Shown here one piece after another: positions 6,419 through 64,000 of a DNA stretch of 64,000 bases. Origin of the DNA: an uncultured Planctomycetota bacterium (GTDB lineage: Bacteria > Planctomycetota > Planctomycetia > Isosphaerales > Isosphaeraceae); contig CAWJTV010000032.1 of assembly GCA_963845755.1 (NCBI GenBank), positions 32,001-96,000 on the forward strand, in the 5' to 3' direction. The translations under genes and the position numbers were made by a program. The first letter of the stretch is position 1. Every line of letters starts with the position of its first letter. Under the pieces are notes generated by a model, which searched no databases, had not been told where the DNA came from, and saw only the letters and a list, made by a program, of their open reading frames with translations.

Positions 6419-6551
6419 GGGTATCCTCGCTCTCGGGAATTCTGATCGTCATGGCATCCAGTTTGTCGGTGTGAGGGGCGTTGGTCCAGAGCAGGTTGGC
6501 GGCATGGGCGTGGAATGCGAGCACTACCCAGTCCCGGCCGACTTCTCGGCG

Positions 6552-9733: not shown

Positions 9734-11469
9734 TCATCGCGAAATCGCGTTGCCCTTCGGCGCGATGACGAATACCCCGTTATCGCCCAGCACCCCCTGG
9801 TTGCCACCATCCAGGAACTCGCCCGTGGCATCGGTGATCCCGCCCGGCGGCACGCCGACGACCACCAGTTGGCCGCCCTTGGTGAACTTCGGCTTGCCGG
9901 CCAGCGTCAACGTCACGCTGTGGGTCGTGGCGTTGTACGCCGCCCGGAAGGTCACCGGCTGGGTAACGAGTTGCCGGCCGCGGCGCTGGAATTGCCTCAG
10001 GGTGTAGTTGGCGATGCTCGTCGCCCGGGTCGGGTCCATCGCCGTGCTGAAGTCGAGCTCGAAGGCGACGACGTGCCTGCGCCGTCCCTTGCCGGCGAAG
10101 AGGGCGGTCTCGGTGACGATGGTCGGCGGGACGACGACGGTCAGCGGGATGGTGAGCGTCGTGGTCAGCGGGTCGGTGTAGGCCATGAGCCGGTAGCCGG
10201 TGCCGACCTGGTTGAGGGTCAGCCCGGTGAAGGTGGCCACACCGTTCTGGGCCGTCGCCGTGAGCGTGCCGCCCAGGGTCGCCCCGGTGGACCTGGACGT
10301 CGCCAGGGCGAGGGTGACGGTGCCGTGATACGTGGTGTCCACCAGGCCGGTGAGGTAATCGAGCGACACCGTCAGGCCGAACGGGGCATTGGTGGCGACG
10401 AGGGCCGGCGGTTCGCGCCGTCACGAAGAGGGTGCGCATCGGCGCCGAGGACACCGAGTTGCGAGGCCATCTCCTCGGTGAACCAGAGGTTGCCATCCGC
10501 GCCCGCCGCAATCCCGAGGAGACCCGGGGCGGACGTGGGGGTCGTCGTCTCGGTGATGCCGCGAGTGACGGGGTTGATCGAGCCGACCTGAGGTTCCCCT
10601 GCCTCGACAAACCAGAGGTTGCCATCCGGGCCCGCCGTGATCCCTCGGGGCGCGGGGCTGGTGCTGGGGATCGCGGTCTCGGTGATGACGTGCGTGGTCG
10701 GGTTGATCGACCCGATCTTGTTGCCGTTCTGCTCGGTGAACCAGAGGTCGCCATCCGGGCCGGATGTGATCCCATACGGGCCGGAACCGGCGGTGGGGAT
10801 GGCGAACTCGGCGATCGTGTGGGTGGTCGGGTTGATCATCCCGACCTGGTTCGTGCCGTACTCGACGAACCAGACATTGCCGTCGGATCCCGCCGCGATC
10901 CCGATCGGCTCGGAACCGGCCGTGGGGATGGCGAACTCGCTGATCGCGCGGGTGGTCGGGTTGATCATTCCGACTTTGCCGACGGCGAACTCGGTGAACC
11001 AGAGGTTGCCGTCAGGGCCCATCGTGATGTTGTCGGGTTCGGCGCCGGCGGTCGGCACACTCGTCTCGACGAAGGCGTGAGTGGTCGGGTTGATCGACCC
11101 GATCTTGTTGCCCGCCTCCTCGGTGAACCAGAGGTTGCCGTCGGGACCGGCCGCGATCCCGACCGGCTCGGAACTGGTCGTGGGGGGGGTGAAGTCGGCA
11201 GTGGCATGGGTGGTCGGGTTGATCATCCCGATCTTGCCGGCGGTAAACTCGGTGAACCAGAGGTTGCCGTCGGAGCCCGCCGCGATGAAGTTGGGACCGG
11301 CGGTGGCCGTTGGGGTGGGGAACTCGGCGATGGTCGAGAGCAACTGGCGCGACTCCAGCGGCTCCACGATCGGTCGCCGGCGACGGCGAAGCCCCACCGC
11401 CGGCTCACCACGGTGGCCCCACGACCAGAACGCCGGTCTCGACCGTTCTCTCCGATGCGGATTCATCAT
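9734..11469 (-). CDS. Planctomycete exoprotein with Vgb-like beta-propeller repeats and C-terminal Ig-like region; frameshift ~10400
   Basis: EPLESRQLLS motif; seven I-x-x-G-x-DG-x-(L/V)WF repeats; C-terminal beta-rich ORF 9734..10369. Confidence 0.8.
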
Positions 11470-11648
11470 GTCCTCCCGGTAATTCGATGAAGGAAAGCCG
11501 TTGCATACCCCGGCCGCGATAATGGCCACCGAGGATTACCGTACGGACTGCGCCCACGCAAGCGTCGGTGCCTCGGACCCCCCTGGCCGTTGATTGAGGG
11601 GCCAGGAGGATCGAGGAACCGGCTAAGGGGCGGGCGAGAGATTGACCG

Positions 11649-13942: not shown

Positions 13943-14139
13943 CGCAGACCCCTTTGCAATGAAGTGGCGGCCAGTCCGAGGTTTCACTCCTCTCGACCTG
14001 GGCCGGGTATCGTTCGTGGGATTCGGGAAGTTCCTCGATCTACACAAGCGCCTTCCTGGCGTCGGTTACCTCACGGATTCTCGGATGATCGTCGTGACTG
14101 TCGCGTCAACGTCCGCCGGATCGCCGAGGGATTCGACCA

Positions 14140-16440
14140 TCACGACGAGAAGCTACCCTGCACGTCGTTATCGTTGGTGGTGGCGTGGTTGCCAGTGATG
14201 GACGTATTGTCGATGGTCGCGGTCCCGATGATCGCGATGCCGCCGCCCACGCCGACGCCGGGAAGGCCAGCGGTGCCGGCGCTACCGGCAGTGGAACTAC
14301 CCGTGGTGCCGTTGGGATTGCCGCTTGTACCGCCAGAGGCTCCGCCTCCGTTCCCCCCCAATCCGGCCGAGAGGGTGTTGGCCTGGTTGGTCGTTATGAC
14401 GTCGGTGGCCTTAGCCTGCTTCGATCGCTTCTTCGCACCGAGCCGGGGCTGAAGGGTGAGGGTACCCGTGGTCGCGTCGAAGATGCCGCCGCCCTGGCCA
14501 ATGCCGCCCTCGCCGCCATTACCGCCATTGCCGCCGGTCGCGGAGCCGCCAGATCCGCCGGTCGCGCTCGTCCCGGCGTTGCCACCTCCGCCTCCGTTCG
14601 CGGAACCTCCGTCACCCCCGTTGCCGCCAACGCCGCTGCTGGCCTGGTTGCTGCTGAGATTCACCGTCACGCCCGTGAAGGAAGCACTACCGGCGTTGAA
14701 CAGTCCACCACCCAGGCCGCTGCCGGCAGCGCCGCCGGGTCCAGCGGTACCGCCGAAGACCAATCCGCCACTCCCACCGGCGCTGTTGGAACCCCCGTTA
14801 CCACCGGGTCCGCTGAAGGTCTGGAGGCCATTTCCGCCGGTACCGCCTCCGCCACCGTTGGCCTGATTGCTGATAAACGCGACGGGCGCCGGCGGCCTGG
14901 ACGGTTTCTGCGCCTTGAACAACACCGAGGCGCCGGCATCGTTGAATAGACCGCCGCCTTCTCCCCCACCGCCGATACCGGCCGCGCCGCCCTTACCGCC
15001 GAACCCGACGCCCCCGGCGCCGCCGACGCCCCCAATATTGGCGCCGCCCATCCCTCCGATGCCGCCCTCGCCCTCCCCACCAAGGCCACCATTGCCGCCG
15101 AAATTGCCGCTGGCCCGATTATTCGCGAATGTGACCGAGACCGTGCTGGTGAACGTGGCACCATTGCCGTTGAAGGCGCCAGCGCCGTCGCCCGTACCGC
15201 CCGCGCCGCCCACGCCGCCGGGGCTCGCCGCGCCGGCGGCTCCGGCACCGCCGCGATCGTTGCCGGAGCCGGCTCCGCCTTCACCGCCGACGCCGTCGCC
15301 GCCGCGGCCGCCGGTATTTCCCGCGCCCCCGATCGCCTGGTTGGTCGAGAAGGTACTGGCCTTGGCCGTCAAGGAAACGGTCCCGAGGTTGAACAGACCC
15401 GCACCCTCGCCTTGCCCACCGCCACCGCCGGCACCGCTGGTCCCGCCGAAACCCTCGCCGCCCGACCCGGCACCGCCCCCGCTATCGGCGCCGCCGTGAC
15501 CGCCAATGCCGGGTCCGCCTTCCCCGCCCAGGCCGCCCGCGCCGCCATTGGCGGCGTTGGCCGAAATCGTCGTGCCGGACAGGGTCAGGCTGCGCACCGC
15601 CGCGTTGAACACGCCACCCCCCAGCCCGTCGCCGCCGGTGCCGCCGGCGCCGCCGTTGCCCCCCAGGCCGGTTCGACCGTCGATCTCGGGAAGTGACGTG
15701 CCATTCGAACCGTCGCCCTCGCCTCCGTCGCCGCCGGCACCGCCGTTGCCGCCGAAAGCGGCGTTGGATGCGATCGTGCCGCCGGAGATGCTCAGCGCAC
15801 CGGCCGCATTGAAGATCCCGGCCCCCTCGCCGTCGCTCCCGCCGGTCCCAGTGCCGCCTTTGCCGCCGTCGCCGCTGGTGCCCGAGATCGCACCGTCGGC
15901 ACCGTGGCTACCGGAGACCCCCACCGCGACGTTGTTCAGGATTCGGACCGAGGTGAGCTTCACCGTGCCGCCGGAGTTGAGGATCCCGCCTCCGTCTCCC
16001 ACGACGCGGCCGTGCTGGATCGTCAGGTTGGAAATCGATGCCTTGCCGCTCAGGACCTGGAAGACGCGATCCAGGTTATTGCCGTCGATGATGGTGTTGG
16101 CCGCATTCTTGCCCTTGATGGTGAGATTGCCGGTGATATCCAGGTCGCCGGTGGTGACGTCGTCCGCACCGGTGGGGGCGATCGTCAGCGTGAAGGTGCC
16201 GGAGGGCAGAATGATCTTGTTGGAGCCCCCCTTGGCATCGGCGGCCATGATGGCCGACCGTAGCGAAATGTGGCCCGTGGCGTCCTTGCCCTTCTTCAAA
16301 TCCACGGCGACCGTGTCGAGCGTGGTGTTGATCCGGAACGTGGAGAGCACCACGCGGTGCTCGAGCCTCTCGAGCCAGGGACGCAGCCGATTCGCCTGCC
16401 GCCAGCTTGCCGCTTGTCGCCGCGTCTTGGAGCTGAACAT
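14140..16440 (-). CDS. Glycine-rich (PGRS-like) exoprotein with CSLREA-like motif, paralog 2
   Basis: Intact 766-aa ORF; N- and C-terminal blocks nearly identical to 11649..13942. Confidence 0.85.
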   Translation of the reverse strand: MFSSKTRRQAASWRQANRLRPWLERLEHRVVLSTFRINTTLDTVAVDLKKGKDATGHISLRSAIMAADAKGGSNKIILPSGTFTLTIAPTGADDVTTGDLDITGNLTIKGKNAANTIIDGNNLDRVFQVLSGKASISNLTIQHGRVVGDGGGILNSGGTVKLTSVRILNNVAVGVSGSHGADGAISGTSGDGGKGGTGTGGSDGEGAGIFNAAGALSISGGTIASNAAFGGNGGAGGDGGEGDGSNGTSLPEIDGRTGLGGNGGAGGTGGDGLGGGVFNAAVRSLTLSGTTISANAANGGAGGLGGEGGPGIGGHGGADSGGGAGSGGEGFGGTSGAGGGGGQGEGAGLFNLGTVSLTAKASTFSTNQAIGGAGNTGGRGGDGVGGEGGAGSGNDRGGAGAAGAASPGGVGGAGGTGDGAGAFNGNGATFTSTVSVTFANNRASGNFGGNGGLGGEGEGGIGGMGGANIGGVGGAGGVGFGGKGGAAGIGGGGEGGGLFNDAGASVLFKAQKPSRPPAPVAFISNQANGGGGGTGGNGLQTFSGPGGNGGSNSAGGSGGLVFGGTAGPGGAAGSGLGGGLFNAGSASFTGVTVNLSSNQASSGVGGNGGDGGSANGGGGGNAGTSATGGSGGSATGGNGGNGGEGGIGQGGGIFDATTGTLTLQPRLGAKKRSKQAKATDVITTNQANTLSAGLGGNGGGASGGTSGNPNGTTGSSTAGSAGTAGLPGVGVGGGIAIIGTATIDNTSITGNHATTNDNDVQGSFSS

Positions 16441-49088: not shown

Positions 49089-49707
49089 TCAATCGAAGGC
49101 AGGACCCAGGCCCAGGTCTTCCTCGACGCGAGCGACCGCCCGGGCCAGTTGCTTGCGGCGGGCGTCGGCTGTGCCGCCCAGCTCGGTGGCGACCGCGGCC
49201 CAGTCGTGTCCCTTCGCCCGCAGGTCGGCGATCATCCGCTCCTCGTCGCTGAGCCGCTCGCGGAACTTCTGGAGCAGCTCACGGCCCGAGGCGAGGCGGC
49301 TGGGCGTCTGCTCCGTGGCGGCCGCGGTCCCGGTCATTTCCAGGTCGAGATCACCGACCCGTCGCACGTCGCGCCGCTGCCGCTGATGGTGACGCGCCTG
49401 CTCGGCCACTTTCTTGCGCCATGCCCACGAGCAGGCGGATCAACTGCGGCGGCTCGTCCAGGTCGAAATCGCCGACGGCCGCCCGGGCGAAGAAACTGGC
49501 CAGCACCGATTGGCAGATGTCCATCGAATCGAAGACCCGGCGCAGGGCGGGGTTGCGCAATCGGAGCCATCCCCGGACTTCCAGGCGGATCTCGGCCTCG
49601 TAGCGACGGACCAATTCCTCGGCCGCCCGCTCGTCCCCTTGACGAATTCGGCGGATGAATTCCGAATACTCATCCTTCAGCGTCGATTCATTCATAACAG
49701 TCCCCAT
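49089..49707 (-). CDS. ECF sigma factor paired with the downstream kinase; frameshift ~49415
   Basis: GDERAAEELVRRYE, FDSMDICQSVLASF, QTPSR, ARRKQLARA. Confidence 0.8.
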
Positions 49708-51707
49708 TCCTCACACGGATTATAAACCGGTAGAGCTCGCGAAAACAGGGGCTCACTTTGTTCGACGGGCGGCGGGTGGCACGTCACAAGGGAAGACCGG
49801 AGCCCGAACGGGTGGACCTGCTCACATTCCGGCCCCTTCTCCCTGGCTCGTCGCCACTTGCCTTGTTCTTTGACACTCTCGGTGAAGACCACCGTCGTCA
49901 GACCGTGGTTTCGAACGGCCGCTGGCTCCAGTTCCCCCGGCCTGATTACGACTGTCACTGTGTCTTGCGGATCCGGCCTCGAATCGTGCCGTGGGTTGGG
50001 TTCGTTTTGGGTGTTTCCGTGCCCCCGGGCCACGGCACCGGCTCCGGCGAGGACAGCAAGCACCAGCGCCAGGGCCACGATCGCGATGGGGAGCGCCGCC
50101 GGTTGGAAAGGAGCGATGTCCGCAGCGAGCGGCGCCGCGGGATCGTGGGGCGGACTCTCGCAGTCGACCGGCGCGTCTGTGAGGATGGGGTCCGTCGATC
50201 CCTTCGTGCTTCCGCCTGAAGGCTGAGACTCTGTTCCCGAAGGGTCAGGTTCGGGCGAGCGGGGGGCGTCAGCCCCCTGTCCGGTGGGCGACGGCCCTCG
50301 AAGACAGGGGGCTGACGCCCCCCGCTCGCCCTTCCGGAACAGACTCTGACATCCAGCAGGCTGGTCGAAATCCGCGGTGGGAGTTCCGGCTTCAGCCGGT
50401 CCGTCAAACCGTTCTTGAGAGACCGCCTGAAGGCTGACATCCAGCCCGGAACCGACGGGATCCCCGGTGGGAGTTCCGGCTTCAGCCGGTTTGATGATTC
50501 CGGGGCGCAATTCGTCGCCATGCTCCCTGGGCTCGCGTTGAGGACTCCTGAAGTCAACATTTGGGTCGCTGGGTTCGTTTTGCGAATCCTCGCGATCGGC
50601 CGTCGGCGTCACGGGATCGGGATCCGTCGGCGTCTCCGTGGACTCGGCCGGCTCCGCGGTGGAGGGTTTTCCGCAATCCGTCGCCACGCCGGATCGGCGG
50701 ACTTTGAGGATGGTCTCGACACTCCGGAACAAGCTCCGGCCGCATGAGAACTGGTAGCGGCGCAGGCGCTCCCCTTCCGCACTGTCGTCGAAGGACAGCC
50801 GGGCCGCCGGATCGTCGGCCTCGGCGCGGCGGCGATGCCCCTCGGCGATCGCCACCAGCCGCGCGATTTCCCGTTCGGCGATCTCCCGGAACGCGGCCAT
50901 CGTCTCGGCTTCCCCCGCCGGCAACCGCCCGTCCAACTGCCGCAGCAACCAACGATCCCAGCGGTCGCGCGGCGTCAACTCGAGGTCGTCCGGGAGCGTG
51001 ATGTGTGCACACCACTGGAAAGGATCCACGACGTCGTGGCATGACGTCGAGTCGAGCGGCCGTTTTCCCAGCAGGCGGACGGCATTGACCTGCTGGCCGT
51101 GCTCCCAGAGGTGGCCCGCCTCGAGGAGGGCGCGGAGCTCATTCCAGCGGTCGAGCAGCCATCGGCAGCCGGCGGCGGTGGATTCGAGCCGGAAGACGAT
51201 GGCCTGAGGATGATCGAGGAGGTCCAGGTGGCCGGGGCCCTTGGCGGTCGCCGGGGCGGTGCCCAGGACGTTGAGGACGTTGTCCTGGAGGCCGGCTTCG
51301 GCGTCCTTGCCGCGGCCGTTGAAGAGCCACAAGCCCAGGGCGACGGCCTCTTCGTGCTCCCGCCGGGCCTCGGCGATGGGGACGGACTCGATCAGGTGGG
51401 ACAGCCGCGCCAGCTCGGCCCGCCGGGCCCGCTCCAGCATCCAGGAGGAGTGGACGGCCTCTTCCAGGAGGATCTGCTCGACTTCGTTCTGGGGCTGGAG
51501 CTGGTCGGTCAAGGTTTCGAAGCGGATTCGCAGCTTCTGAGGGTCCTCGCCGGGGAGGACGAGGGTCTGGGCGGTCATGCCGTGTTTGACGGCGTTGAAC
51601 TTCGACCGGGCCTTTCCTTCCGGCGACCGCGGCCCGGTGCTCTTCTGAGCGTTGCGGCGGTTGATCTCGGCCCGGCTGGGCCTGGTCGCAGTGGCCGTCG
51701 TGGTCAT
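49692..51707 (-). CDS. Hypothetical protein with NRRNAQKSTGPRSPEGK...NAVKHG N-terminal motif and repeat-invaded low-complexity C-terminus
   Basis: 671-aa ORF with high-GC codon usage; motif recalled as recurrent in Planctomycete hypothetical proteins; QNEPS/QNEPN motifs. Confidence 0.7.
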   Translation of the reverse strand: MTTTATATRPSRAEINRRNAQKSTGPRSPEGKARSKFNAVKHGMTAQTLVLPGEDPQKLRIRFETLTDQLQPQNEVEQILLEEAVHSSWMLERARRAELARLSHLIESVPIAEARREHEEAVALGLWLFNGRGKDAEAGLQDNVLNVLGTAPATAKGPGHLDLLDHPQAIVFRLESTAAGCRWLLDRWNELRALLEAGHLWEHGQQVNAVRLLGKRPLDSTSCHDVVDPFQWCAHITLPDDLELTPRDRWDRWLLRQLDGRLPAGEAETMAAFREIAEREIARLVAIAEGHRRRAEADDPAARLSFDDSAEGERLRRYQFSCGRSLFRSVETILKVRRSGVATDCGKPSTAEPAESTETPTDPDPVTPTADREDSQNEPSDPNVDFRSPQREPREHGDELRPGIIKPAEAGTPTGDPVGSGLDVSLQAVSQERFDGPAEAGTPTADFDQPAGCQSLFRKGERGASAPCLRGPSPTGQGADAPRSPEPDPSGTESQPSGGSTKGSTDPILTDAPVDCESPPHDPAAPLAADIAPFQPAALPIAIVALALVLAVLAGAGAVARGHGNTQNEPNPRHDSRPDPQDTVTVVIRPGELEPAAVRNHGLTTVVFTESVKEQGKWRRAREKGPECEQVHPFGLRSSLVTCHPPPVEQSEPLFSRALPVYNPCEEWGLL
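50227..50346. mobile_element. 120-bp MITE with 16-bp TIRs, TGA target duplication and internal perfect 29-bp inverted repeat
   Basis: Left end GACTCTGTTCCCGAAG, right end (rc) GAGTCTGTTCCGGAAG; TGA at 50224-50226 and 50347-50349; inner arms 50253-50281 and 50303-50331. Confidence 0.85.
50375..50490. repeat. REP-like cluster: two identical 26-bp CGGTGGGAGTTCCGGCTTCAGCCGGT copies with a degenerate inverted copy between
   Basis: Copies at 50375-50400 and 50465-50490; internal palindrome CCGGCT-TC-AGCCGG; each encodes PAEAGTPT. Confidence 0.8.
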
Positions 51708-52358: not shown

Positions 52359-53518
52359 ATGATCTCCCCCGCCCTCATCAAACCGACGCACAAGGCGATC
52401 GTGGCCTACTACGAGAAGCTCCAGGGCTACGACTCCCACAACGTCACCCACGAGATGGCCCTGCGCTCGGCGTTCCAGCAGCTCCTGGAGGAGACCGGCA
52501 AGTCCCACAAATGGACGTTGATCCCCGAGCAGACGGTGAAAGTCGGCGGCAAGTCCGTCCGGCCCGACGGCACATTCCGCGACGAGTGGCACTTGCCCGT
52601 CGGTTACTGGGAGGCCAAGGACACCGCCGACGACCTCAACGCCGAGATCCGGGCCAAGATCGCCAAGGGCTATCCCGCTGGTCAACACGATCTTCGAGGA
52701 CACCCGCGAGGCGGTCCTGTTCCAGAACGGCAAGGAGGCGTTCCGCATCCCGCTGACCGAGCCGGCCAAGCTCGCCGATCTGCTCAATGCGTTCTACGCC
52801 CATTCCAAGCCCGACATCGAGAGCTTCAAGCAGGCCGTCGCGCATTTCCAGGAGCGGATCCCCGACCTCGCCCGGGCGCTCAACGAGCGGATCGTCGAGG
52901 CCCACAAGTCGAATGCGAAGTTCAAGGCCGCCTTCGCCGACTTCTTCGAATTGTGTCGTCAGTCGCTCAACCCGAACCTCCGGCGCGAGGCGGTCGACGA
53001 GATGCTGGTCCAGCACCTGCTGACCGAACGGCTGTTTCGCACGGTGTTCGACAACCCCGATTTCACCAGGCGGAACGTCGATCGCCGCCGAGATCGAGCG
53101 CGTGATCGAGGCCCTGGCCAGCCAGAGCTTCAGCCGTGCCGAGTTCCTCCGCAAGCTCGACCATTTCTACAAGGCCATCGAGGACGCCGCCCGCGGCCTC
53201 GACGATTGGAGCGATAAGCAGCACTTCCTCAACACGGTCTACGAGCGGTTCTTCCAGGGCTATTCGGTCAAGGTCGCCGACACCCACGGCATCGTATACA
53301 CGCCGCAGGAGATCGTCGACTTCATGTGCGCCAGCGTCGAGGAGGTCCTCAAGTCGGAGTTCGGCATCGGCCTCGGCGACTCCGGCGTCCACATCCTCGA
53401 CCCCTGCACCGGCACGGGTAACTTCATCGTCAGGCTGATCCGCCGCTTCCCCAAGAAAGACCTGCCCCGCATGTACCGCGAGCAGCTCTTCGCCAACGAG
53501 GTCATGCTCCTGCCCTAA
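52359..53518 (+). pseudogene. 5' part of a type ISP-like/IIG restriction-modification enzyme (PD-ExK nuclease + start of N6-MTase), truncated
   Basis: RPDG...YWEAKD; GIVYTPQEIVDFM; ILDPCTGTGNF; ends LFANEVMLLP* before the expected NPPY motif; frameshifts ~52680 and ~53080. Confidence 0.85.
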
Positions 53519-53532
53519 CAGCGAGGCCAACA

Positions 53533-55855
53533 ATGTCTGGGAGCGTTTCTTCCACCAAACAACGACGTGCTGTCATTCTCACTGCCATTCGCGCAGAATA
53601 CCAAGCGGTGCGCGCGTATCTTACTGACCCCAGGGAAGTTACACATCCCCAAGGGACTGTGTACGAGCAGGGCGATTTCATCGATTCTATGGGCCACACT
53701 TGGCATGTCGGGATTGTCGAGATCGGCGCGGGTAACCCTGGAGCTGCCCTCGAAACTGAGCGAGCCATCGCCTTTTTCAACCCTGATGCCGCACTATTTG
53801 TAGGAGTTGCAGGGGGGTTGAAGGAAGTCCGATTGTGCGATGTTGTCGCTGCGACTAAGATTTATGGATATGAATCCGGAAAATCTAATGACGAATTCCA
53901 GCCAAGACCAAATGTGGGTGAGACGTCCTACTCGATGGAGCAACGTGCACGGGCTGAGGCTAGAAAGGATAACTGGCTGAAGCGACTCAGAACACCGTTA
54001 CTCGAAGCGCCGCGCGTCTATGTAGCCCCAATAGCGGCCGGCGAAAAGGTCGTTGCTTCAGAGAGATCTGTTGTGTATGGGTTTCTGCCTCCAGTTACAG
54101 TGACGCAATCGCGGTCGAGATGGAGGGACGCGGTTTCCTCCAAGCGGCCCGGGCAAATCAAAGCGTTCAATGTTTGGTGGTCCGCGGAATATCAGACCTC
54201 ATCTCGCAGAAAAGCGAAACGGACAAAGAAGGATACCAAGATCTCGCAGCAGAGACAGCGAGCCGCCTTTGCCTTCGAAGTCCTAGCCAACTTGGAGGGA
54301 GAGAAGACCAGTGAGTCTCCGCCGATTCCGTTTCCCTCAAGCCCCTCTCACAACCTACCTTCTCTGAGCGAGAGATTTGTAACCCGCGAAGAGCAACTCC
54401 GCGACATCCGCGACGCGTTGACTCGCGATCGCAGACTTGGTGTCGTCCGGGAGTTTGTCATCTACGGGCATAACGGAGCGGGAAAGACATCATTGGCCAT
54501 CGATTATGGCTGGACCTACCTTCTCGAATACGGGGGCATTTTCTTCGTCGATTGCTCGGCCGATCCTTTTTACGAAGGAATCGCCAACCTGTTACCTCGT
54601 GTACTGCCCGACGTTGCTTATGATTATTTCGGTGCACCTGAATATAAGCAAAGTGTGGCCATTCGAGTTAGAAGCCATCTGGAGGCCAGCAGCATTCCTT
54701 CGCTGCTCATACTCGACGACGTCCGTAATGCTGATGAGTGGGACCGGATTCGGCGCTCAGGCTTCCTACCGGGCGAGTCATGTCATCGGTTGATCACTAC
54801 CACCGATCCCGAGCTTCCCGCCGAAGATGCATTCAGACTCGGAGGTTTATCAGTCGCGGAGGGAATTGATCTGTTGGCCGCACATCGAGGCGATATCCGA
54901 TCAGAAGAGAACAGAAAGCACGCCGAATTCATTCTGGATTGGCTCGGAGGAGTCCCCTTCTTCTTAACGATCGTCGGGGTCTACATGCGACGCAAGCCGA
55001 AACTGACATGGTCGGATTTTGCCCGAAGCCTTCAAGACTCGGGGCTTGGTGCCATCCGTCGCGCGGAGGACGCGGCTCGATTTCGTACCGATCTTTACAT
55101 CCGCCGAGTCAACCAAGTGCTGGATAACTTACTCGACTCGCTTTCAGATGCTGAACGCAGGGCATTGGAATATTCTTCATTACTATTTAATTCTTATATA
55201 ATAAAAACAGCTATAATTTTACTATTGAATTTCGATCCCACACTCACTCTGCAGGTCATGCCCGGCTATGAGAAGGAGCCCGCCCGCCATCGTCAACGAA
55301 CTCGAGGAGGCTCAACTACTCGTGCCTCGCTTCGATGCCGGCACTCAAGCCCTAGCGGTGCACGAGATCCTGAAAAAGAAGTTAGTAGAACGCATAGATA
55401 ATGTAAATGGGTTAAGAAAACAGTATTTTCAGAATATATATAACACAGCAGTTAAAATATTTCTTTTGCCGGCCAAAGACATCTTTCCAGAACGTCGATC
55501 CGCAGATGGCCCGAGTCAGCCTTCTCTGTTCTTTCACGTTATGTACGCAATATTCGAGGGGTTAGAAAGGTGTGGACATGTGCAGAATGCATCGGCCTAT
55601 TATAATTATTGGTTGGATATGCGAGATACAATGAACACAGCAAGGATGCTAGCCGAGAAGCTAGGAGGGAGAGTGGATCTGCAATACGACGTTTTGACAG
55701 TTAAGCATATGAGGATTTCACCGATAGTTGTTGTTGAATTGAACAATCTGACCGAGGCAACTGCTTTGGCCAAGGAGAATCAGGGGGAGGTTAAACTAAT
55801 TGTTAATCAATCGAATCAAGTGGTTGCGATTATCGTTGTCATCAAGATCAGGTAA
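53533..55855 (+). CDS. PNP/MTA-SAH nucleosidase domain fused to NB-ARC (STAND) NTPase; frameshifts ~54090, ~54260, ~55285
   Basis: ILTAIRAEY, FVGVAGG, GEKVV, AVEMEG, VVRGISD; Walker A GHNGAGKT, Walker B LLILDDV, LITT, LGGVPF. Visibly lower GC than the flanks. Confidence 0.82.
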
Positions 55856-55876
55856 GGCGCTGGTTCCGTCTTTTCG

Positions 55877-56034
55877 CCGGCCCCGGCGGCGACCGCACTT
55901 CCGACCCCAACCGGCCCGACGACCCCGAATCCATCGTCCGCCTCGTCGGCCAGGTCGTGCGGGTGAGCATCGAGACGGTCAGGATCGTCGAGGGGTTGCC
56001 ACCGGCTTTCGGCTGGCCGAACGAGCCCGCGTAA
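55877..56034 (+). repeat. Type ISP 3'-tail copy 1
   Basis: Encodes GGDRTSDPNRPDDPESIVRLVGQVVRVSIETVRIVEGLPPAFGWPNEPA*; homologous to 60446-60590 and 62328-62406. Confidence 0.9.
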
Positions 56035-56057
56035 TGTGTCCCTCAGTTTCCCCTTTG

Positions 56058-56687
56058 CTAGTAGGTCTCAGGAAGCTCGCCGCGCCGGTGGCGTTCGTAG
56101 TGGCTATTGTTGATGCTCTCCCGGCGGGAGTTCGGCTGGCGTCGGTTCAACTTGGGCAGGTCCGACGGATACGCGAGCTCGTTCCTCAGATTTGCGGCCA
56201 TGTCCGGGACATGGCGCCACTTCCAAAACGTCTTGATCTTGAAGATCTTCTCCCGGCGAACCTCGTTCAGCTTGTCTCGGTCCAGGCGCAAGAACCGGAT
56301 CATCCTCCACCCGTCAACCGATAAACCCTCGATGGTCCCGTTCTCCTTCACGCGGAAGTGGGCCCCGTAAGCCACCTTGCACGGGTCGAGGATCGGCCAC
56401 CTGTTCTGCTTGAACGAGTTGCAATCACCGCAGGAATACACCATGTTCTCGTAATCGAGGGCGAGGTGCGTCGCACGGCTCCGGGGATTCAGGTGTTCGA
56501 CGTGATAGGCGTTCTGGCCCGAGGGGTACCAGACCTCTCGGGTGAGACAGAAGACGCAGCGGAACACGAACTCGTCGCGGAGCCAAGGCTTGTAAGCCTT
56601 GTACCTCCGGTAGTCAAATGGCCCGTGGATGCGGACGTGGCACACTCCGGGGTATGTGAAGGGCGCGGGCTCCGCGTCAGTCATCAT
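56058..56687 (-). CDS. HNH endonuclease
   Basis: CVFC...HVEHLNP...YENMVYSCGDCN; TGATG overlap with the upstream methyltransferase stop. Confidence 0.85.
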   Translation of the reverse strand: MMTDAEPAPFTYPGVCHVRIHGPFDYRRYKAYKPWLRDEFVFRCVFCLTREVWYPSGQNAYHVEHLNPRSRATHLALDYENMVYSCGDCNSFKQNRWPILDPCKVAYGAHFRVKENGTIEGLSVDGWRMIRFLRLDRDKLNEVRREKIFKIKTFWKWRHVPDMAANLRNELAYPSDLPKLNRRQPNSRRESINNSHYERHRRGELPETY

Positions 56688-59359
56688 CAACCTCGTTGCT
56701 CGGCCTCTAACTCTAATTGCCTCACACGTTCGTCGAGCCAAGTCAGATCCTCTAGTGGGAGGGGGGCGAACCGGTCCAGATAGCTGTCCGCTGCGTCCTG
56801 GAACTGCTTCAACTCCCGCTGCTCTTCCTGGGTTAACCCCTCGTTGAGCTCCTTGTCGATGAGGAAGGCCCGCCTATCGTTGTACCAGTTCCCAGGCTTC
56901 GACGGGATACCGGACCCTGGTAGGGGTGACTGCCGCCAAGCGGGATTCCAGGGCGCTGATCTTGAAATCGACGGCGACCGGCCGTTCCGCGTGGCGCAGG
57001 TAACTGAGCACCTTCAACTGCAGTGACTCCGGCAGGCGGTATCCCTTGAGAATGATGGCATCGATCTCGAGGAGGGCGTCTCGCACCTCGCCGGGGCCGA
57101 ACAGGCTCGGCCCATGCGGCTCCGCAAGGTCTGTCAGGTACTTCCGCACCAGCATTGTGACGGCTTCCTGTTCGCCATCGCTGTTCTGTGGGACCGGGAT
57201 TAGGTCGAGCACGTTCTTGTTGTTGTGCATGCCGGTCGCGTGGCAGGCGACGAAGGCTCCCGCGAGAGGGTTATTCAGTACGGCTGCAAGGTATTCAATT
57301 GATGTTTCTTCATCTCTGGGCCACACTCCGTGGAAATTCTGGGTGCAGTATGACTCCTCATAATCAAGAAATGCGACGTGCCTCCAGCCTCGCACGGCTC
57401 TCCGGACCGCATTTACTATGACCTTCTTGCGACTCCACGGATGTTCACTACCCCTCCGCAATCCATCTTTTTTTACGTTCAGATATGTAGCCCGAGTCGG
57501 TTCGTAGGCCAGCAACTCTGTCTCGTCCGCGCTCCAGAATCCTCGCCGAAACCCCATGCGGGGCGTCTCTGAACGCCGCTCGGTCTCCGCGACAGAATTA
57601 TGCCATTCGATCCCACGGTGTATCTTTGCGATACTTTTGAACTTCGAAACTACTCTCTAAGTATCTCCAAACCTCGATAAGGGCTGGTATGGCCAAGCTG
57701 GTGACCGCTTGCTCAACCGTCTTCGTAGCCTGATCCTGCCTCGTAAACGTATAGCCGGCGAGAAAAGGCTCGCGGTCCGTCTTCTCTAAAGATTTGAACG
57801 TAATTGTAATAAGATTATCCCCCCTCGGTGGTTCATATGCAATAAGGAGAGCACTACGATGCCTAGAAATAAAAAAAACATTCTCCTCAGGCAACTCGAC
57901 GATTTCAACGCTTCCGAATCGATCAGCTATTCTCCGACGAACCTCTCGGAATTCGTCGCCGCTCAGGATCGTATAAGGTAGGACAAAGCCAAGCATCCCG
58001 TCAGAGTGCAGAGCATCGAGCACTCGGTGGAGCAACTCGATCGGCTTGCGATCTGCCCTCACCCGCGCGTACCGGACTTTCTCCGATTGCGAGAATCTCT
58101 CGTAGGGCGGGTTGCAGACGATGACCCTCGCGTTCTCCAGCGAGCTTCGGAAGTCGGACGAATGAAAGACGTCACCGAGCCTCAGCCGCCACCCGTTCGA
58201 GTTGGGAAAGTCGGCGAGCATCAGGCAGAGCCAGCTCACCTCCAAGGCGAACGAGTCCATCTCATATCCCTCGAGCATCTCCACGAAGTATCGGTGACGC
58301 TCCTCAGCCGCCATGGGCGTTCGAAGGGCACCACGCAACCTCTGAAGTGCTGCGACGAGGAAGATCCCGTGGCCCGAGCAGGCTCCAGGATGAACCTCTC
58401 CCGCTCGTCGAGCTTCTCGATAGGCAGGCTTCGCACGATGTAGCGGGCGATGCTGGAGGGGGTTCCGTGGATGCCAAGCTTCTTCCGCAGCGGTTTCGTC
58501 ACGAGCGTGTGCTCGTATATGTACGCGAGGACCTCGACCGAGAGGTTCTGGAAATTCAGCCTCCTCCATAGAATCGGGAACACGGCCTCCCAGACGGCCC
58601 GGTCGTCCAAGACGGGTTCGCTCTGGCCATAGTACGACTCGACTTTGCTCAAGACCTCGGCGGGGTCGGAGGAGCCGGAAATCTCGGCGAACTCCCCGAA
58701 TCCGCGGTCGTGAAGCACCTTGGCGGCGAGGAAGCGGAAGGCCAACCGGAACGTCCCCTGCACTCGGCGAGCGAGAGCGACTCCCACTCCTTCCCGTAAA
58801 CCCGAAGGGCCTCCGCGAGCACTTCGTTGAGCATCCGGTCCAGTTTCTCCCGGATCTGTCCTTCGAGCGCGGGGATTAGCCCTAGGTCGAAGAAGTCGAG
58901 CTGACGTTCACCGCCCAGGTCCAGGCCGATGTTCTTGCCACGGAGGATGGATTCCGCCGACCACGCACCTGAATACCGGACGAAGGCATCGCGGAGGTTC
59001 CCGGGGAGAATGATCTGGCGCTCGTCGTCGGGGGTCATCTCCTTGCCAACTCGCCAGGCGGAGATGGCGTCCTCGCGCACCTCGAAGGCGACGGAGGCAC
59101 CCAGGGCGCGGAAGTCAGAGATCAGGCCCGCCCCGGCCTTGCCGTTCGGGACGACGACGGCGATGCAGGCGGTCTGATAGGTGGGGGGCAACTGGCCGAA
59201 GGCGGCGACGGGCACCGTCCTGCGCGGGTCGCCGGGCTGGAACCAGTCAGTGAACTCGTAATCCCGGATTACGAGGCTGCCGTCATAGCCGAGGGGGGGC
59301 AATTCGGAAACGACCGAATCGAAGAGTCTCTTGTGTTTGTCGCTCTTGAACGCGGCCAT
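56687..59359 (-). CDS. Large N6-adenine DNA methyltransferase-like protein; several frameshifts
   Basis: GIHGTP, ILEPA/GHGIFL (motif I), VIVCNPPY (motif IV), LGFVLP, YLAAVLN, spread over ORFs 58649..59359, 58236..58787, 57598..58569, 56874..57557 plus a C-terminal tail. Confidence 0.78.
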
Positions 59360-59471
59360 CCCATCCCCTCGCGCCTAGCCGATGCCTGATCCGCCCTCCT
59401 TCGCTCGACTTGGGTGCTCACGTCCTCCTGCCACAGCGACGCGCACCGCTCCGCTGGATGCTGAACAAGCT

Positions 59472-59918
59472 TTAACTAATAGTACGGCTGGGAGCCCTGC
59501 AACGCCAGTCACTGATCGTTGGCGCCGTGACATGCACGCCGACTCCCAGCCGCGCCAGGCTACTCTTTCCCTCGACTCGCGCCGCGATGCGTGAACGAAG
59601 GGGCAGATAGATGCGCTGTTCGGTAAATCCCAGGACAAAGGACCTCGGCGGCAGGTCGTGCCCCTGCGGGCCGATCAGCACAGATTCGGTGTAGTTGTCG
59701 CTATAAATCAATTCCTTGATATCAAATCCGCTGGCGTGAGGTCGTATTGACGCGGGTTGACCGGTCGGCGAGCTTCTGAGGGGCTTCCATTTCCTGATGC
59801 TGCTGTCCAGCGTCAAATCGATGGCGGTCAACGTCCAGTGTTGGGGGTCGGGCCTGGGCCTGATGACGATCTGGCCGTGCTCGATCGCAGCCAGGATTTC
59901 TCGATCGCTGAGTATCAT
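59472..59918 (-). pseudogene. dcd: dCTP deaminase (dUTPase-fold Dcd), C-terminally truncated
   Basis: MILSDREI, AIDLTL, RVEGKSSLARLG-x-x-VHVTAPTI; similarity ends there. Confidence 0.8.
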
Positions 59919-60212
59919 ACCGCCACCGGTTCGATCTCATGCCAGAGCTCGCCGAACCTTACCCAGGCCCGGTTCGTGCCCTGACCCGGACTCGACGGGA
60001 AACTCGATGAGCGCGAGCCGCTTTCTCCGATCGATCTTGACGATCCCGACGGGAAGGTAATCCTCAGACCCACGACGGCGGATCATATTCTTGGGCACGT
60101 TGATCTGGTGCAATCGTCCTTCGGCATCCCTCAACTCCGCGATCCGGTCCAGGGGAGGCACGACTTCTTGGACTTCGCAACGAACTTCCGGATAATACGT
60201 GACCTCATCCAT
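59915..60212 (-). CDS. Hypothetical protein coupled to dcd; probable frameshift near the 3' end
   Basis: GGAG RBS; alternative frame NRAWVRFGELWHEIEPVAV* ends in an ATGA overlap with dcd. Confidence 0.55.
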
Positions 60213-60411
60213 CTCCTACCACTCCCTCAAAGGTGGCCTGGAATTGAGCCGACAGTGTGAATGTCAGTATAGTATCACCCGGGGAGCCGCGGTCAACGAA
60301 TTATTGCTCGACCACTCTGTCGCGCCGACTGGATGGTTTTCTCACTCGGCGACGTCGCAACATGACCAGCAATCGTAATCGTCGTCATGATCCGCCGGTT
60401 CGCGGAAGTTG

Positions 60412-60621
60412 TGGGTCATCGATCAATACCAGGTCAAGCCCATTACCGGCCTCGGAGGCGATCGCACTTCCGACCCCTACCGGCCCGACGACCCCGAATC
60501 CATCGTCCGCCTCGTCGGCCAGGTCGTGCGGGTGAGCATCGAGACGGTCAAGATCGTCGAGGGTCTACCACCGGCTTTCGGATGGCCGGAAGAGGCCCAG
60601 ACCGAGAACGGAACGGTCTGA
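60412..60621 (+). repeat. Type ISP 3'-tail copy 2 (longest)
   Basis: WVIDQYQVK...TSDPYRPDDPESIVRLVGQVVRVSIETVKIVEGLP, matching the LlaBIII-type C-terminal pattern. Confidence 0.9.
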
Positions 60622-60789
60622 GATCAGCAACCGTCTTCCCGTTTTCGCCAGAGCCAGAAGCGACACAAAGAAACTCGGTACGAGGCGCGTATCCGCCGGT
60701 GATTCTCATCGGAGATGGACCCATTCCTCCCGGGTAAGATAGAATCCAGACGTTGAGATCGCGTCGTTGACCGAGCTGGAGTCCTCGAC

Positions 60790-61083
60790 ATGAACCGAAC
60801 GGCCATCCTCGACCGTCTGAAGGCGGAAATCCCCACCCTGCGCCAGACATACGGGATCCGCTCCTTGGCCGTGTTCGGCTCGATGGCTCGGGGCGACGAT
60901 CGGGAAGGCAGTGATGTGGACATCCTCGTCACGTTCGACGGCAAGCCGGACTTCGACCGTTTCATGGGCCTGAAGCTCGACCTCGAGGACATGCTCGGCC
61001 GCCCGGTCGATCTGGGTACCCCCGATACACTCCGGCCCGAGATGCGGGCGGAAGTCGAGAGGGACCTCATCCATGTCTCGTGA
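60790..61083 (+). CDS. Minimal nucleotidyltransferase (MNT antitoxin)
   Basis: LAVFGSMARG...SDVDILV; LEDMLGRPVDL. Confidence 0.9.
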   Translation: MNRTAILDRLKAEIPTLRQTYGIRSLAVFGSMARGDDREGSDVDILVTFDGKPDFDRFMGLKLDLEDMLGRPVDLGTPDTLRPEMRAEVERDLIHVS

Positions 61084-61410
61084 CTGGCAAGCCTATCTGG
61101 ACGACATGAGAATAGCCTGCGAGAAGGTGATACGGTTCACCGCCGGCATGGATCGCCAAGCGTTCTTCGCCGATGACCGGACGTACCATGCCGCGATCCA
61201 TTGCCTCCTCATCGTCGGCGAGGCCGCCAAACGCATCCCGGACGACGTGCGCTGCGCATCCCTCAGGTGGAATGGCGTAAGATCGCCGGAATGCGCGATT
61301 GGCTGGCTCATGCCTACTTTTCGATCAACAACGACATTCTCTGGGACGTGATCGAATCGAAAGTTCCTGAGCTGTCGCGCGCACTCGAGGCGTTTCAGCA
61401 GCAGGGGTAG
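61073..61410 (+). CDS. HepT-like/DUF86 HEPN ribonuclease toxin; frameshift ~61250
   Basis: YLDDM, IVGEAAKRIP, WRKIAGMRDWLAHAYF (Rx4H), ILWDVI. Confidence 0.85.
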
Positions 61411-61413
61411 ACC

Positions 61414-61765
61414 ATGGCCGTCAGACGCGGGACGACGCGACACGAGAAACGCGCTGTGAAGCCGAGCGTCCTCCGCGACATCGTGCGCCGCGTCGTCGAG
61501 GTGGCCCAGCCCGAGAAGATCATTCTGTTCGGCTCGGCTGCGGCGGGGAGATGGGACCCGACAGCGATGTCGATCTGCTGGTCATCAAAGGAGGCCGATT
61601 TCAACGGGGACGGCTCGTCGAAAAGATTTACAGCAACATGCACGGGGCGAGAGAGGCCGTCAACATCATCGTCGTCACCCGGAAGAGGTGGAACGCTATC
61701 GCGACACGCCGTGTCTGGTCATCTATCCGGCGTTGCGCGAGGGAAAGGTGATCTATGGGGCGTAA
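61414..61765 (+). CDS. Second MNT nucleotidyltransferase, frameshifted, no HEPN partner downstream
   Basis: PEKIILFGSAA, DSDVDLLVI, ALREGKVIYGA*. Confidence 0.75.
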
Positions 61766-61938
61766 ACTGGAGGTGAGCGGGACCGAGGTCTCAGGCGAAT
61801 TGGGACGCCGCCATCGGGAGAAAGTCGCGCAAGCGCTGCTCAATCCGTTCGGATGGGACGCGTACGTCGTGGTCTGTGCCTTCTCATCCCGAGGTCACCG
61901 GATTCGCTTCTCGTTTCACCGAGCGGAGGAATCGACCG

Positions 61939-62319
61939 ATGGCTAAGCGCCCCTCAAAGCCCTACGGAGAACGGATCAAGGGATTGATGGCCGAGAAGTC
62001 GCGGCTGCTTTCCCAGGCCCAGGCCTTCGAGGATATGGGCCTGGAGGAGACGGCCCGACCCGTGTGGTCTTGCGCCGCGTCGTATGAAGAGCGGATCGCG
62101 CCGCTGCTCGATGTGATCGGCCGCGACGCCGAAGCGGCCCTGCACCGCGTCAGCGCCGCCGCCTGCTACGAGAAGTCCGGTGACTGGAGCCGTGCGACCA
62201 ATCTCTACCGTGCGGCGCTGGCCGGTCCGATGCCGGACGCGGCCAGGGCGGATGTGCAGCGAAAGCTATCGGCCTGCCTCGAGCAACTTCATCAGGCCGC
62301 GGTCGGCTCGGTCGTCTGA
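61939..62319 (+). CDS. Hypothetical all-helical (TPR-like) protein
   Basis: GGAGG RBS; SAAACYEKSGDWSRATNLYRAAL pattern. Confidence 0.6.
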   Translation: MAKRPSKPYGERIKGLMAEKSRLLSQAQAFEDMGLEETARPVWSCAASYEERIAPLLDVIGRDAEAALHRVSAAACYEKSGDWSRATNLYRAALAGPMPDAARADVQRKLSACLEQLHQAAVGSVV

Positions 62320-62327
62320 GGTCATCC

Positions 62328-62406
62328 GCCCCGGCGGCGACCGCACTTCCGACCCCAACCGGCCCGACGACCCCGAGTCCATCGTCCGCCTCGTCGGCCA
62401 GGTCGT
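62328..62406 (+). repeat. Type ISP 3'-tail copy 3 (79 bp, truncated)
   Basis: 78/79 identical to 55880-55958. Confidence 0.9.
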
Positions 62407-62477
62407 TAGCTTCCGAACTCCTCCTCCTGCCGCACGAGGCGGCAGGGGTCGGTGTCTCCAGTTACCTTTGCCACCGT

Positions 62478-62520
62478 AAAAAAATAACCCGACTGAGGCC
62501 TTTCGGCGGGTCAGCCGGGT
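62478..62520 (-). terminator. Probable intrinsic terminator downstream of hicB
   Basis: Minus strand ACCCGGCTGA...TCAGTCGGGT hairpin followed by TATTTTTTT. Confidence 0.55.
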
Positions 62521-62619
62521 AAGAAGTATTGAAACTATCGTGCATTCCTCGAGAAAAATGAACCTCGATTCGTCCAACGATGGCCGCGGCGGGCTGGAGC
62601 CCCTGCGCTGCCCGCTTGG

Positions 62620-62835
62620 TCAGGCGTCGACCTCGACGTATTCCACACGACTCGACGGCTCGGGGATGGGTAAACCGTCTTCTGCCATCCCCTCCAGGTG
62701 CAGCGCGATGGCCTCGCGGATCAGACGCTCGACTTCTTGCTCCGACTCGCCCGTGGCCACGCACCCCGGCAGGTCCGGCACGTAGGCCGCAAGGTTCGTC
62801 CCCGCATCCTCGATGACGATCGCGTACCGCTTCAT
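62620..62835 (-). CDS. hicB: HicB family antitoxin
   Basis: YVPDLPGCVATGES...IREAIALHLEGM...GLPIPEP. Confidence 0.9.
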   Translation of the reverse strand: MKRYAIVIEDAGTNLAAYVPDLPGCVATGESEQEVERLIREAIALHLEGMAEDGLPIPEPSSRVEYVEVDA

Positions 62836-62848
62836 CGTCCCTCCGCCC

Positions 62849-63294
62849 TCAATCGTCCCAGCCAGCCTGCTTGAAAATGCTACTCAGTGTCGGTTCCAAA
62901 AGCCCCAGAGGGGCGACCGGACGTAGCCAGGGGCGTGAGCCCCTGGACGATCGACCGCGACCCCCTCGACCGTCGTTCGAGCCCCGGAGGGGCGACAGAC
63001 GTCCTCAGGGCCACAGGGTGTCTGTCGCCCCTCCGGGGCTCCCGGATCGGAGGAACTCCCCTCGTCCAGGGGCTCACGCCCCTGGCTACGTGCTTCCGCC
63101 CCCATCCGGGGGCTCAGGAAGGGACTTATGGAACAGACTCTCAACGTGCCGGGCGGGATGGTATGGCTCGGCTTCCCCGAAACGGTGACGCGACCGGGCT
63201 TCGTCGGATGTTTGAACTGAGAGTGATCGCCCTTCGACTTGACCCTGGCCCAGCCGTCGGCTCGGAGCCGACGGAGTATTTCGCTGACCTTCAT
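62849..63294 (-). pseudogene. hicA: HicA toxin interrupted by a 254-bp MITE
   Basis: DGW...KGDHSQFKHPTKPGRVTV...IPPGTL, then after the insert SSIFKQAGWDD*. Excision restores a 62-aa ORF. Confidence 0.9.
62887..63140. mobile_element. 254-bp MITE with 16-bp TIRs, TCA target duplication and nested REP-like palindromes
   Basis: Left end GTGTCGGTTCCAAAAG, right end (rc) GAGTCTGTTCCATAAG; TCA at 62884-62886 and 63141-63143; inner CCAGGGGCGTGAGCCCCTGG and GCCCCGGAGGGGC units in mirrored order. Confidence 0.88.
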
Positions 63295-63435
63295 GCCGTG
63301 AGGCTATCGGATCGCGAATCAGTCGGTCAAGGAGGGACACGGCGACACATCTGACAACGGGACGGGTCGACAATGACTTCCGTCCGGCTTCGCCCCACGA
63401 TTTCGGAGACTCCTCGTTGAACGCCACCACGATTT

Positions 63436-63600
63436 GCCCCGAAGGGGCAGCCACAAACCAGCCCGGGGCAACGCCCCGGGGACCGAAGAACCCTCCCCGG
63501 AACAGCCCTGAAAGGGCGGCCCAAGAACGGTCGCCTGGCCCGCCTTGTGTCGCCCCTTCAGGGCTGGGATTGGGGGTGGGCGACCGAGTCCCGGGGCGTT
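63436..63600. repeat. REP/REPIN-like nested palindrome cluster, cut on the right by an IS
   Basis: GCCCCGAAGGGGC, CCCGGGGCAACGCCCCGGG, GCCCTGAAAGGGC, mirrored copies, then a half-palindrome CCCGGGGCGTT. Confidence 0.78.
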
Positions 63601-64000
63601 CAACTTATTCCATTTGGAACGTAAGTCCTTGTCGATTCACGATCCGCACAGCATTGATCAGCAGTTTGGCCCAGACCCAACGCCACACCCGCCACGACCG
63701 GCGCACCCAGGCCGGCAGCGGACCCAGGCCGCCACCGAAGGAGGTCGCCTGGCCGAAGGATCGCTCGATCGCGCTGCGCATCGCGTAGAGGCTCTTCCCG
63801 AAATCTCCCTGCAACAGCTCGATGCAGCGGAGGCGGTACGGGCTTTGGCGGCGGTGTCCCAGTCCGGCCTTGGGGTCCTCGCCGGGGCTACCAACTGGTA
63901 GCCCGCGGCGCCCGCCGCGTCGAAGACCGGGTTGGCGTCGTACTCGCCATCGCCCAGCACGTAGCCACCGCCGCCGCAGTCGGCCAATTCCGGCAGCAAC
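63601..64000 (-). mobile_element. 3' end of an IS4/IS5-superfamily DDE transposase and IS end (runs off the window)
   Basis: LGDGEYD and YAMRSAIERSF (Y-x2-R-x3-E); stop at 63605; frameshift ~63880. Confidence 0.75.

Follow-up and report, generated by a model that had tools for sequence, protein, structure and literature searches.

A wrecked DrdV-like restriction-modification gene as a likely landing pad for recombination among defence genes

Integrons and the clusters of attC sites lacking integron integrases (CALINs) hold stacks of mostly whole genes that are separated by repeats. For Rhs loci and for the immunity arrays of the Vibrio cholerae type VI secretion system (T6SS), the cited passages propose either homology-facilitated illegitimate recombination (HFIR) or the integration of circles, with later spread by ordinary recombination (PMC2935791, PMC5361080). 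In HFIR, as the cited text describes it, one end is joined through homology and the other at a microhomology of 3-10 bp, with a deletion about as large as the insertion (PMC3240628). How chromosomal defence genes that have neither an integrase nor a transposase enter islands and replace one another there is an open question, which we address with a 64,000-nt window of planctomycete DNA (contig C32, positions 32,001 to 96,000, of assembly G000; 14.3 Mb in 49 contigs). In this window, copies of the 3′ end of a restriction-modification (R-M) gene, here called tails, lie among defence and toxin-antitoxin (TA) genes, and an earlier note on the same DNA had taken them for the anchors of an integron-like platform. 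Our reading, to which we give a probability of roughly 0.6, is that a wrecked R-M gene resembling DrdV acts as a landing pad for recombination, through insertion-deletion events anchored by homology and subsequent exchange through the ends that are left.

Sequence comparison identifies the tails as the 3′ ends of a DrdV-like type IIL/IIG R-M gene. The parent family combines nuclease, connector, N6 methyltransferase (MTase) and target recognition domain (TRD) in a single chain of about 1025 aa with no helicase domain, and Pfam and PADLOC return a coupler, an N6 methyltransferase, Type_ISP_C and a type IIG assignment for it. As a reference we built a profile of about 1025 positions from 14 intact homologues, of which positions 13-1022 match PDB 7LO5 (E 2.7e-291); we take this entry to be DrdV, its length of 1029 and its layout agreeing with the DrdV preprint. 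DrdV itself is described in the cited part of that preprint as a type IIL enzyme of 1029 residues with the same layout and without the type ISP ATPase (bioRxiv 10.1101/2021.01.06.425610). LlaGI and LlaBIII, which are type ISP enzymes and carry an extra ATPase that the parent family does not have, match the profile from position 160 onward only. Because the family has no helicase it is not true type ISP, the class to which the tails had previously been likened.

In the window the profile finds residues 3-385 and the tails, which start at residues 970-986, and nothing more; no intact copy is present in the genome, and the closest full-length protein, P0002, matches nothing beyond the N-terminal piece (N-piece) and the tails. 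While the parent family resembles DrdV in layout and length, the window thus differs in holding pieces only. The earlier note had overlooked that the parent gene is not intact: only its N-terminal third is left, and residues ~386-970 (~1.8 kb) are replaced by 2.36 kb carrying a gene with purine-nucleoside-phosphorylase-like (PNP-like) and NB-ARC domains, whose G+C content is 51% against 64% for the window. Without most of its MTase and its TRD, the gene would not be expected to restrict or methylate DNA. The tail, then, is one of two leftover ends of a gene with an overwritten middle, and the N-terminal leftover is as much a part of the pattern as the tail that had been singled out as anchor.

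This arrangement of N-piece, cargo and tail, which we call hollowed, is present in the window and 24 other loci, and the pattern is shared by many bacteria from soil. Our locus set combined 79 loci from genomes (the best 80 of 176) with 80 from metagenomes (the best 80 of at least 485), to which stretches bearing fragments were added. By eye we excluded 13 loci, comprising 11 duplicates, the frame-broken L010, and L158, a second copy on the contig of L174 that was dropped in error; at least four near-identical pairs are still inside the final set. Its 181 loci fall into 62 intact, 25 hollowed, 7 direct fusions of N-piece to tail, 38 with a tail only and 49 that are cut by contig ends or otherwise classed, counts that cannot be used as frequencies because the set was enriched by design. 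A less biased sample came from 250 genomes of the Acidobacteriota class to which genome G453 belongs, drawn regardless of tail and with at most three candidates scored per genome. Counted by hand, with G453 itself and two contig-end pieces excluded, these gave 17 complete loci and about 20 fragment loci, five of them pairs of N- and C-terminal pieces. Broken genes being about as frequent as complete ones in this sample, the route is not a marginal one. Nearly all of the fragments reach the start or the end of the gene, no lone middle piece was seen, and in the window's own family the 30 of 121 genomes with matches again hold mostly end pieces. In a sister type IIG family (two candidates scored in the same 250 genomes, with a profile built from six of its genes) complete loci numbered about 30 and fragment loci about 9, one of the latter being hollowed. 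Since the sister family is fragmented as well, hollowing is not unique to the DrdV-like family but seems commoner in it. G453 carries four copies at four places (L053, L072, L198, L199), one intact, two hollowed with different R-M cargo and one an empty fusion.

The cargo of the 25 hollowed loci, labelled from selected open reading frames (ORFs), is of R-M type in 15 (Dcm with Vsr, BsuBI/PstI, NgoMIV, XamI, Eco57I-like, N6/N4 methylases), otherwise defence-like in five and without a clear label in five. The second group holds TIR, an AbiJ N-terminal domain, Fic, DUF5131 and the PNP-NB-ARC gene of the window, which we presume to act in defence, partly from general knowledge. The cargo between N-piece and tail in L078, L074, L132, L201 and L217 has a weak Pfam label or none, and may represent unknown defence genes. 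With 20 of 25 cargoes defence-like and 5 unlabelled, the gene ends offer a simple hook for finding defence genes. The view that tails mark repeated gains of defence and TA DNA holds up, the cargo varying between relatives. Eight other loci (L054 and seven more) carry extra tail pieces behind the gene end, 0.18-4.4 kb apart, and like the window they hold stacks of same-strand fragments of variable length with passengers; between the three tail pieces of L054 lie an R-M system, a pair of AAA and DUF4276 genes and a TA pair. Several lone tails adjoin housekeeping genes. In three Binatia loci (L085, at 4978-6531, L094 and L098) several copies of the DNA lying directly upstream of the gene occur within 5 kb. 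A search of metagenomes with a clade-specific DNA pattern gave no match, and viral contigs gave just two weak matches of 14 residues, on which ground we rejected carriage of the gene by phages.

Among the 25 hollowed loci none is a plain insertion: all lost 0.9-2.6 kb (median 2.2) and gained 0.9-4.1 kb (median 2.3). Tails begin between residues 800 and 990 of 1025 in 74 of 78 cases, spread throughout some 175 codons and not at a fixed position, while 28 of 33 N-pieces end at residue 300 or earlier, mostly at 60-300. Six direct fusions have an alignment overlap of 3-10 nt at the joint. Where the last cargo gene is co-oriented with the tail (15 hollowed loci), its stop codon lies within 85 nt of the tail in 13 of 15, with a median of 35. 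The tails have no protein function and are decaying, as they deviate at conserved columns in 124 of 2863 positions (4.3%) against 29 of 2491 (1.2%) in intact genes, a contrast favoured by the choice of columns on intact genes. Secondary deletions are real in L060, L030, L013 and L174.

Several finer regularities did not hold. We rejected conservation of size in register, because inserted and deleted lengths are uncorrelated, and we do not claim selection for in-frame fusions of N-piece to tail (4 of 6 independent joints in frame by coordinates, P about 0.1). Repetitive extragenic palindromic (REP) elements were considered as the cause of joints: folds with z<-2 arise in 13 of 80 80-mers from upstream of tails, compared with 7 of 80 taken at random, and joints lie inside REP inserts in L056/L079, L075 and L174, which leaves them at most a minor route. 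Apart from this, 52 intact genes hold 35 in-frame inserts of 8-71 codons at a few loops (profile positions 581, 707, 847, 887, 913 and 922; genes with such inserts include L045, L048, L053, L063, L064, L073, L077, L083, L099, L106, L129 and L187), many of which are strong DNA palindromes with a GTAG-like start, REP-like elements tolerated inside a restriction gene.

Three locus comparisons are consistent, at the sequence level, with crossovers in or at the tail. L056 and L079 have cargo (87%), joint and tail (95%) in common and diverge at the stop codon, after which L056 continues like the intact L063. L060 and L198 have cargo and joint in common (92%), but the L060 tail is 92% identical to that of the intact L045 against 84% to that of L198, and the 1.35 kb downstream in L060 is common to L045. 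Finally, one and the same empty fusion, running from promoter to stop, sits between unrelated flanks in L165 and L192. These are three cases among 70 upstream segments compared, and most cargoes are unique. Transposon-like ends were also considered and set aside: homology between copies ends at the promoter and the stop codon, and no terminal repeats were seen in the one pair examined closely.

Within the window, the features around the leftover gene are as follows (positions in the window; strand in brackets).

52359..53518 (+), N-terminal third of the DrdV-like R-M gene, residues ~1-385 (nuclease, helical coupler, start of the MTase; ISP_coupler, N6_Mtase), 83-91% to full-length P0002/P0009; its stop codon is created at the junction, and frame breaks at ~52680 and ~53080 may be assembly errors
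53533..55855 (+), cargo 1, PNP-like domain and NB-ARC/AAA ATPase, frame-broken, in place of the missing ~1.8 kb
55877..56034 (+), tail 1, final ~52 codons of the R-M gene including the stop
56058..56741 (-), HNH nuclease with PtuB-like matches; a homologue (67% nt) adjoins the tail in L228
56690..59359 (-), N6-adenine methyltransferase spread over several frames, with a TaqI-like C-terminal domain; position of the 3′ end approximate
59472..59918 (-), dCTP-deaminase-like gene (dcd), 3′ end cut near 59516; Pfam DCD 1-117 of 153, homology ending at residue 135
59937..60212 (-), hypothetical protein of 91 aa, divergent from tail 2; L228 has a dcd-like and a small gene in the same position
60411..60621 (+), tail 2, final ~70 codons, another allele with a different end
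60790..61410 (+), MNT-HepT toxin-antitoxin pair
61414..61767 (+), second MNT with a 4-codon stub of its HEPN partner, 84% to the intact MNT-HEPN pair of L228 up to 61767
61768..61946 (+), 3′ piece of an unrelated gene family also found on contigs C3 and C5, its junction without an R-M tail
61939..62319 (+), TPR-like small gene, a weak match below the Pfam cut-off
62328..62406 (+), tail 3, inner piece of 79 nt with both ends cut
62405..62473 (-), short piece similar to 5-6 other places in the genome and abutting tail 3, probably the end and stop of a convergent gene family
62620..62835 (-), hicB antitoxin (Pfam)
62849..63294 (-), hicA toxin gene, interrupted at ~62886-63143 by a multicopy palindromic repeat of 257 nt

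The coordinates and BLASTN against the whole assembly bear out the three same-strand tails and find no further copy. By BLASTN, copies 1 and 2 are 92% identical over 152 nt, and over 79 nt copies 1 and 3 are 99% and copies 2 and 3 94% identical. Copies 1 and 3 do follow shortly after a cargo stop codon (21 and 8 nt), as described before; short matches between the bases preceding these two tails and codons further upstream in the R-M gene were within chance by a rough reckoning. Copies 1 and 2 had been held to differ mostly by synonymous or conservative changes and to come from different functional alleles. The first point is right: 9 of 141 nt differ, 6 of the 9 synonymously (P=0.014 against neutral). 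The rest are R/K, P/L and N/Y; N/Y falls at a position where 53 of 53 intact genes agree. The second is right in part, given the different ends and synonymous differences, but all three tails share a Tyr-to-Ser change (55930-55932, 60499-60501, 62378-62380) at Tyr997. All of 53 intact genes have Tyr at this column and 9 of 69 tails do not, which means that the three copies cannot simply be taken for the ends of three working alleles. Tails 1 and 2 share an identical 72-nt centre that includes this change (P=0.014 for a run this long) between synonymous-rich ends, a pattern that gene conversion would give. The same Tyr-to-Ser recurs in tails from different genomes (L013, L030, L145, L228, P0050 and P0087) and was unseen in intact genes; behind it might lie descent from one dead tail lineage, gene conversion or a site prone to mutation.

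The four cargo blocks recognized previously keep their labels by Pfam, but they are mosaic. Some joints carry no tail: dcd is cut, the MNT with its HEPN stub is fused to the end of another gene, and tail 3 abuts what is probably a convergent gene's relic. L228 belongs to another genus of the same family; its related tail is preceded by a dcd-like gene and followed by HNH and MNT homologues in a different order, one homologue being fused to an antitoxin-like stub. Together, the tail-less joints and this reshuffling suggest that the blocks are mosaics drawn from a shared pool and not clean cassettes. Many window genes are frame-broken, so single frame breaks are no evidence of decay. Among other features, the repeat splitting hicA (62886-63143) is flanked on both sides by TGAG, like a 4-bp target duplication; positions 63434-64000 hold the left part of a multicopy IS-like (insertion sequence) element with copies 91-99% identical on several contigs; 49692-51707 encodes a 671-aa ORF without Pfam match, whose N-terminal part has ~12 copies in the genome and several in the same-genus genome G001; and 10474-11332 together with 11644-16161, in repeat-rich genes for surface or secreted proteins, contain a 129-nt repeat seven times over and a Gly-rich region that occurs twice, 2.49 kb apart.

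We hypothesize that such loci arise in three steps. Incoming DNA would pair by homology on one side, at the gene start or the flank, and be joined illegitimately through short homology on the other, as in HFIR. Part of the resident DNA would be replaced, and two such events, or one plus trimming, would yield N-piece, cargo and tail. RecA crossovers in the ends would next move cargo onto other alleles and swap the downstream DNA, as the locus comparisons suggest; these are possible with the cell's ordinary machinery because the leftover ends stay similar to every allele of a widespread gene. Finally, a newcomer anchored upstream that joins short of the resident tail would push the old tail and the genes that follow it further back, and repeated displacement would build stacked tail-cargo-tail arrays, much as in the displacement arrays of Rhs and T6SS loci. 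The comparisons fit the tail as shared homology, a part of the original anchor idea that survives.

Several observations weigh against this reading. Inserted and deleted lengths are not correlated pair by pair (Spearman 0.24, P=0.25), and type II R-M pairs likewise usually measure 2-2.5 kb. Just 4 of 78 tails are long C-terminal pieces that begin at residues 60-800, a scarcity for which the model does not account. Joints made at random by HFIR would be expected to retain, in many cases, a fragment of the following donor gene, so the tight cargo ends call for selection or trimming, and copies 1 and 3 begin within about one base of each other. In G001 (87% complete) the parent gene was not found with these queries, nor was an empty site, the two window flanks lying on different contigs with no island, which leaves the order of events in the window conjectural. 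HFIR is also rare in the laboratory, according to the passages cited (PMC5361080, PMC3240628).

An alternative that we consider unlikely is that recombination between two tails, or between a tail and a short match, loops out tail and cargo as a circle, and that a single crossover of this circle into the 3′ end of any allele duplicates the tail. The eight loci with extra tail pieces and the identical centre of tails 1 and 2 are what this would produce. In the cited part of an E. coli test, single-crossover products with duplications of 109-950 bp outnumbered HFIR 56 to 4 (PMC3240628), and circles have been proposed for Rhs tips (PMC2935791). The process also resembles insertion with long target duplication. 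The model leaves the commonest form, loss of the gene middle, unexplained, and it requires the far copy to reach the stop codon, yet in the window, L054, L069, L146 and L169 this copy has lost its 3′ end. Rather improbable, too, is that cargo arrived by unrelated routes within or beside a gene the cell could spare and that later deletions removed all that was not required, the ends being passive debris and the start kept for its promoter. Decaying tails, the four loci with secondary deletions, cargo tight against the junctions, lone tails beside housekeeping genes and the end fragments of the sister family (~9 against ~30 complete) all accord with erosion, but erosion should nibble the outer ends and leave middle pieces, none of which was seen in the class sample, and it accounts neither for the absence of plain insertions nor for the swaps of tail or flank in three comparisons. 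Circle integration and insertion followed by erosion could both act alongside the landing-pad mechanism.

That the gene end was duplicated locally in tandem and then lost parts by deletion, or that the array is a misassembly, is very unlikely. The 99% identity of copies 1 and 3, one unusual substitution in all three tails and the many frame breaks would suit it; against it, copies 1 and 2 differ mostly synonymously and end differently, the repeats of 79-152 nt are short, arrays of the same kind exist elsewhere (L054), and an independent short-read contig equals 60589-60739 without mismatch across the end of tail 2. The run behind this contig, with a share of 0.06, gave scattered short contigs, a few of which match the window exactly; no joint was seen, at a cover too low to bear on the span of the array or on circles.

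No integrase had been noticed in the window, and all of contig C32 indeed has no match to PF00589 (tyrosine) or PF00239 (serine) recombinases, which have 43 and 37 matches in the whole genome. An integron integrase scores above the TIGR02249 cut-off at G000:C3:160300-162186, with attC-like repeats beside it. A ComEC-family match also occurs in the genome, with a query that matches 10 of 14 controls as well. The weak hairpin once described in the tail core folds no better than shuffled sequence (z -0.19/+0.21 and +0.63/+1.02), and GTT at the joint after tail 3, considered as an attC or secondary integrase site, reads as the reversed stop codon of a gene relic that has copies elsewhere. A site-specific platform in which a recombinase in trans recognizes the tail core is therefore highly improbable, since the nearly equal starts of copies 1 and 3, the joints near gene ends, the C3 integrase and the GTT are set against junctions spread over 175 codons with no fixed crossover point, no significant fold, joints in the cargo without a tail, and a core that by eye is unlike the attC-like repeats on C3. 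Neither a dedicated recombinase nor a folded site was found at this locus, which seems to need only the cell's ordinary recombination and no integron-like enzyme.

Because the replaced gene leaves readable ends, the ancestral state of each event is known, its deletion can be measured and its two joints can be mapped; hollowed loci form a record in nature that can be counted and against which the recombination model can be tested. We also entertain a bolder idea, which is doubtful at present: hollowed DrdV-like genes might be homing cassettes without a recombinase, their ends kept because cargo between them can overwrite intact alleles by double crossover, so that this one widespread and highly conserved gene would form a shared docking network spreading unrelated defence systems, mostly rival R-M, across soil-bacterial phyla, and its broken copies would index new defence genes.

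We found no publication on restriction genes hollowed by other defence systems in a search that left most subscription journals and supplements outside. Integrons and CALINs likewise stack genes with repeats, whereas here there is no folded attC, fixed crossover or linked integrase. The 3-10 nt overlaps at direct fusions and the medians of 2.3 kb inserted and 2.2 kb deleted, although without a pairwise correlation of lengths, are of the sizes quoted for HFIR; HFIR differs, in the sources as cited, in being a laboratory process with events of ~1 kb, not known to build R-M loci and not predicting tight joints at gene ends. The Rhs (PMC2935791) and V. cholerae T6SS immunity arrays (PMC5361080) are described in the cited passages as same-strand fragments of variable length with passengers and no integrase, as here, but their anchor precedes a variable toxic tip and the genes kept are cognate immunity genes, whereas here the anchor is a restriction gene and its middle is destroyed. 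The polymorphic toxin tip with cognate immunity of Rhs, contact-dependent inhibition (CDI) and T6SS loci is not present, the cargo consisting of R-M and TA genes and further genes for defence. Insertion with long target duplication (PMC2853133) resembles our case, as far as the cited text goes, in integrase-free R-M gain with direct repeats and in R-M replacing R-M at one site; it duplicates the target without deletion and is defined against an empty site, whereas all 25 split loci here lost DNA and G001 has no empty site. Replacement inside an R-M gene is not described in the cited text of that paper, though its supplements might hold such cases. The P2/P4 defence hotspots (PMC13586616) show, in the part cited, a similarly rapid replacement of systems by recombination, with shared domains suggested as homology, but they are flanked by core phage genes and have almost no recognizable defence pseudogenes, whereas here the relic of a defence gene is the flank. 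What would be new at the locus is an R-M gene as landing pad; otherwise it is a variant of known displacement and replacement processes, with no new enzymatic system.

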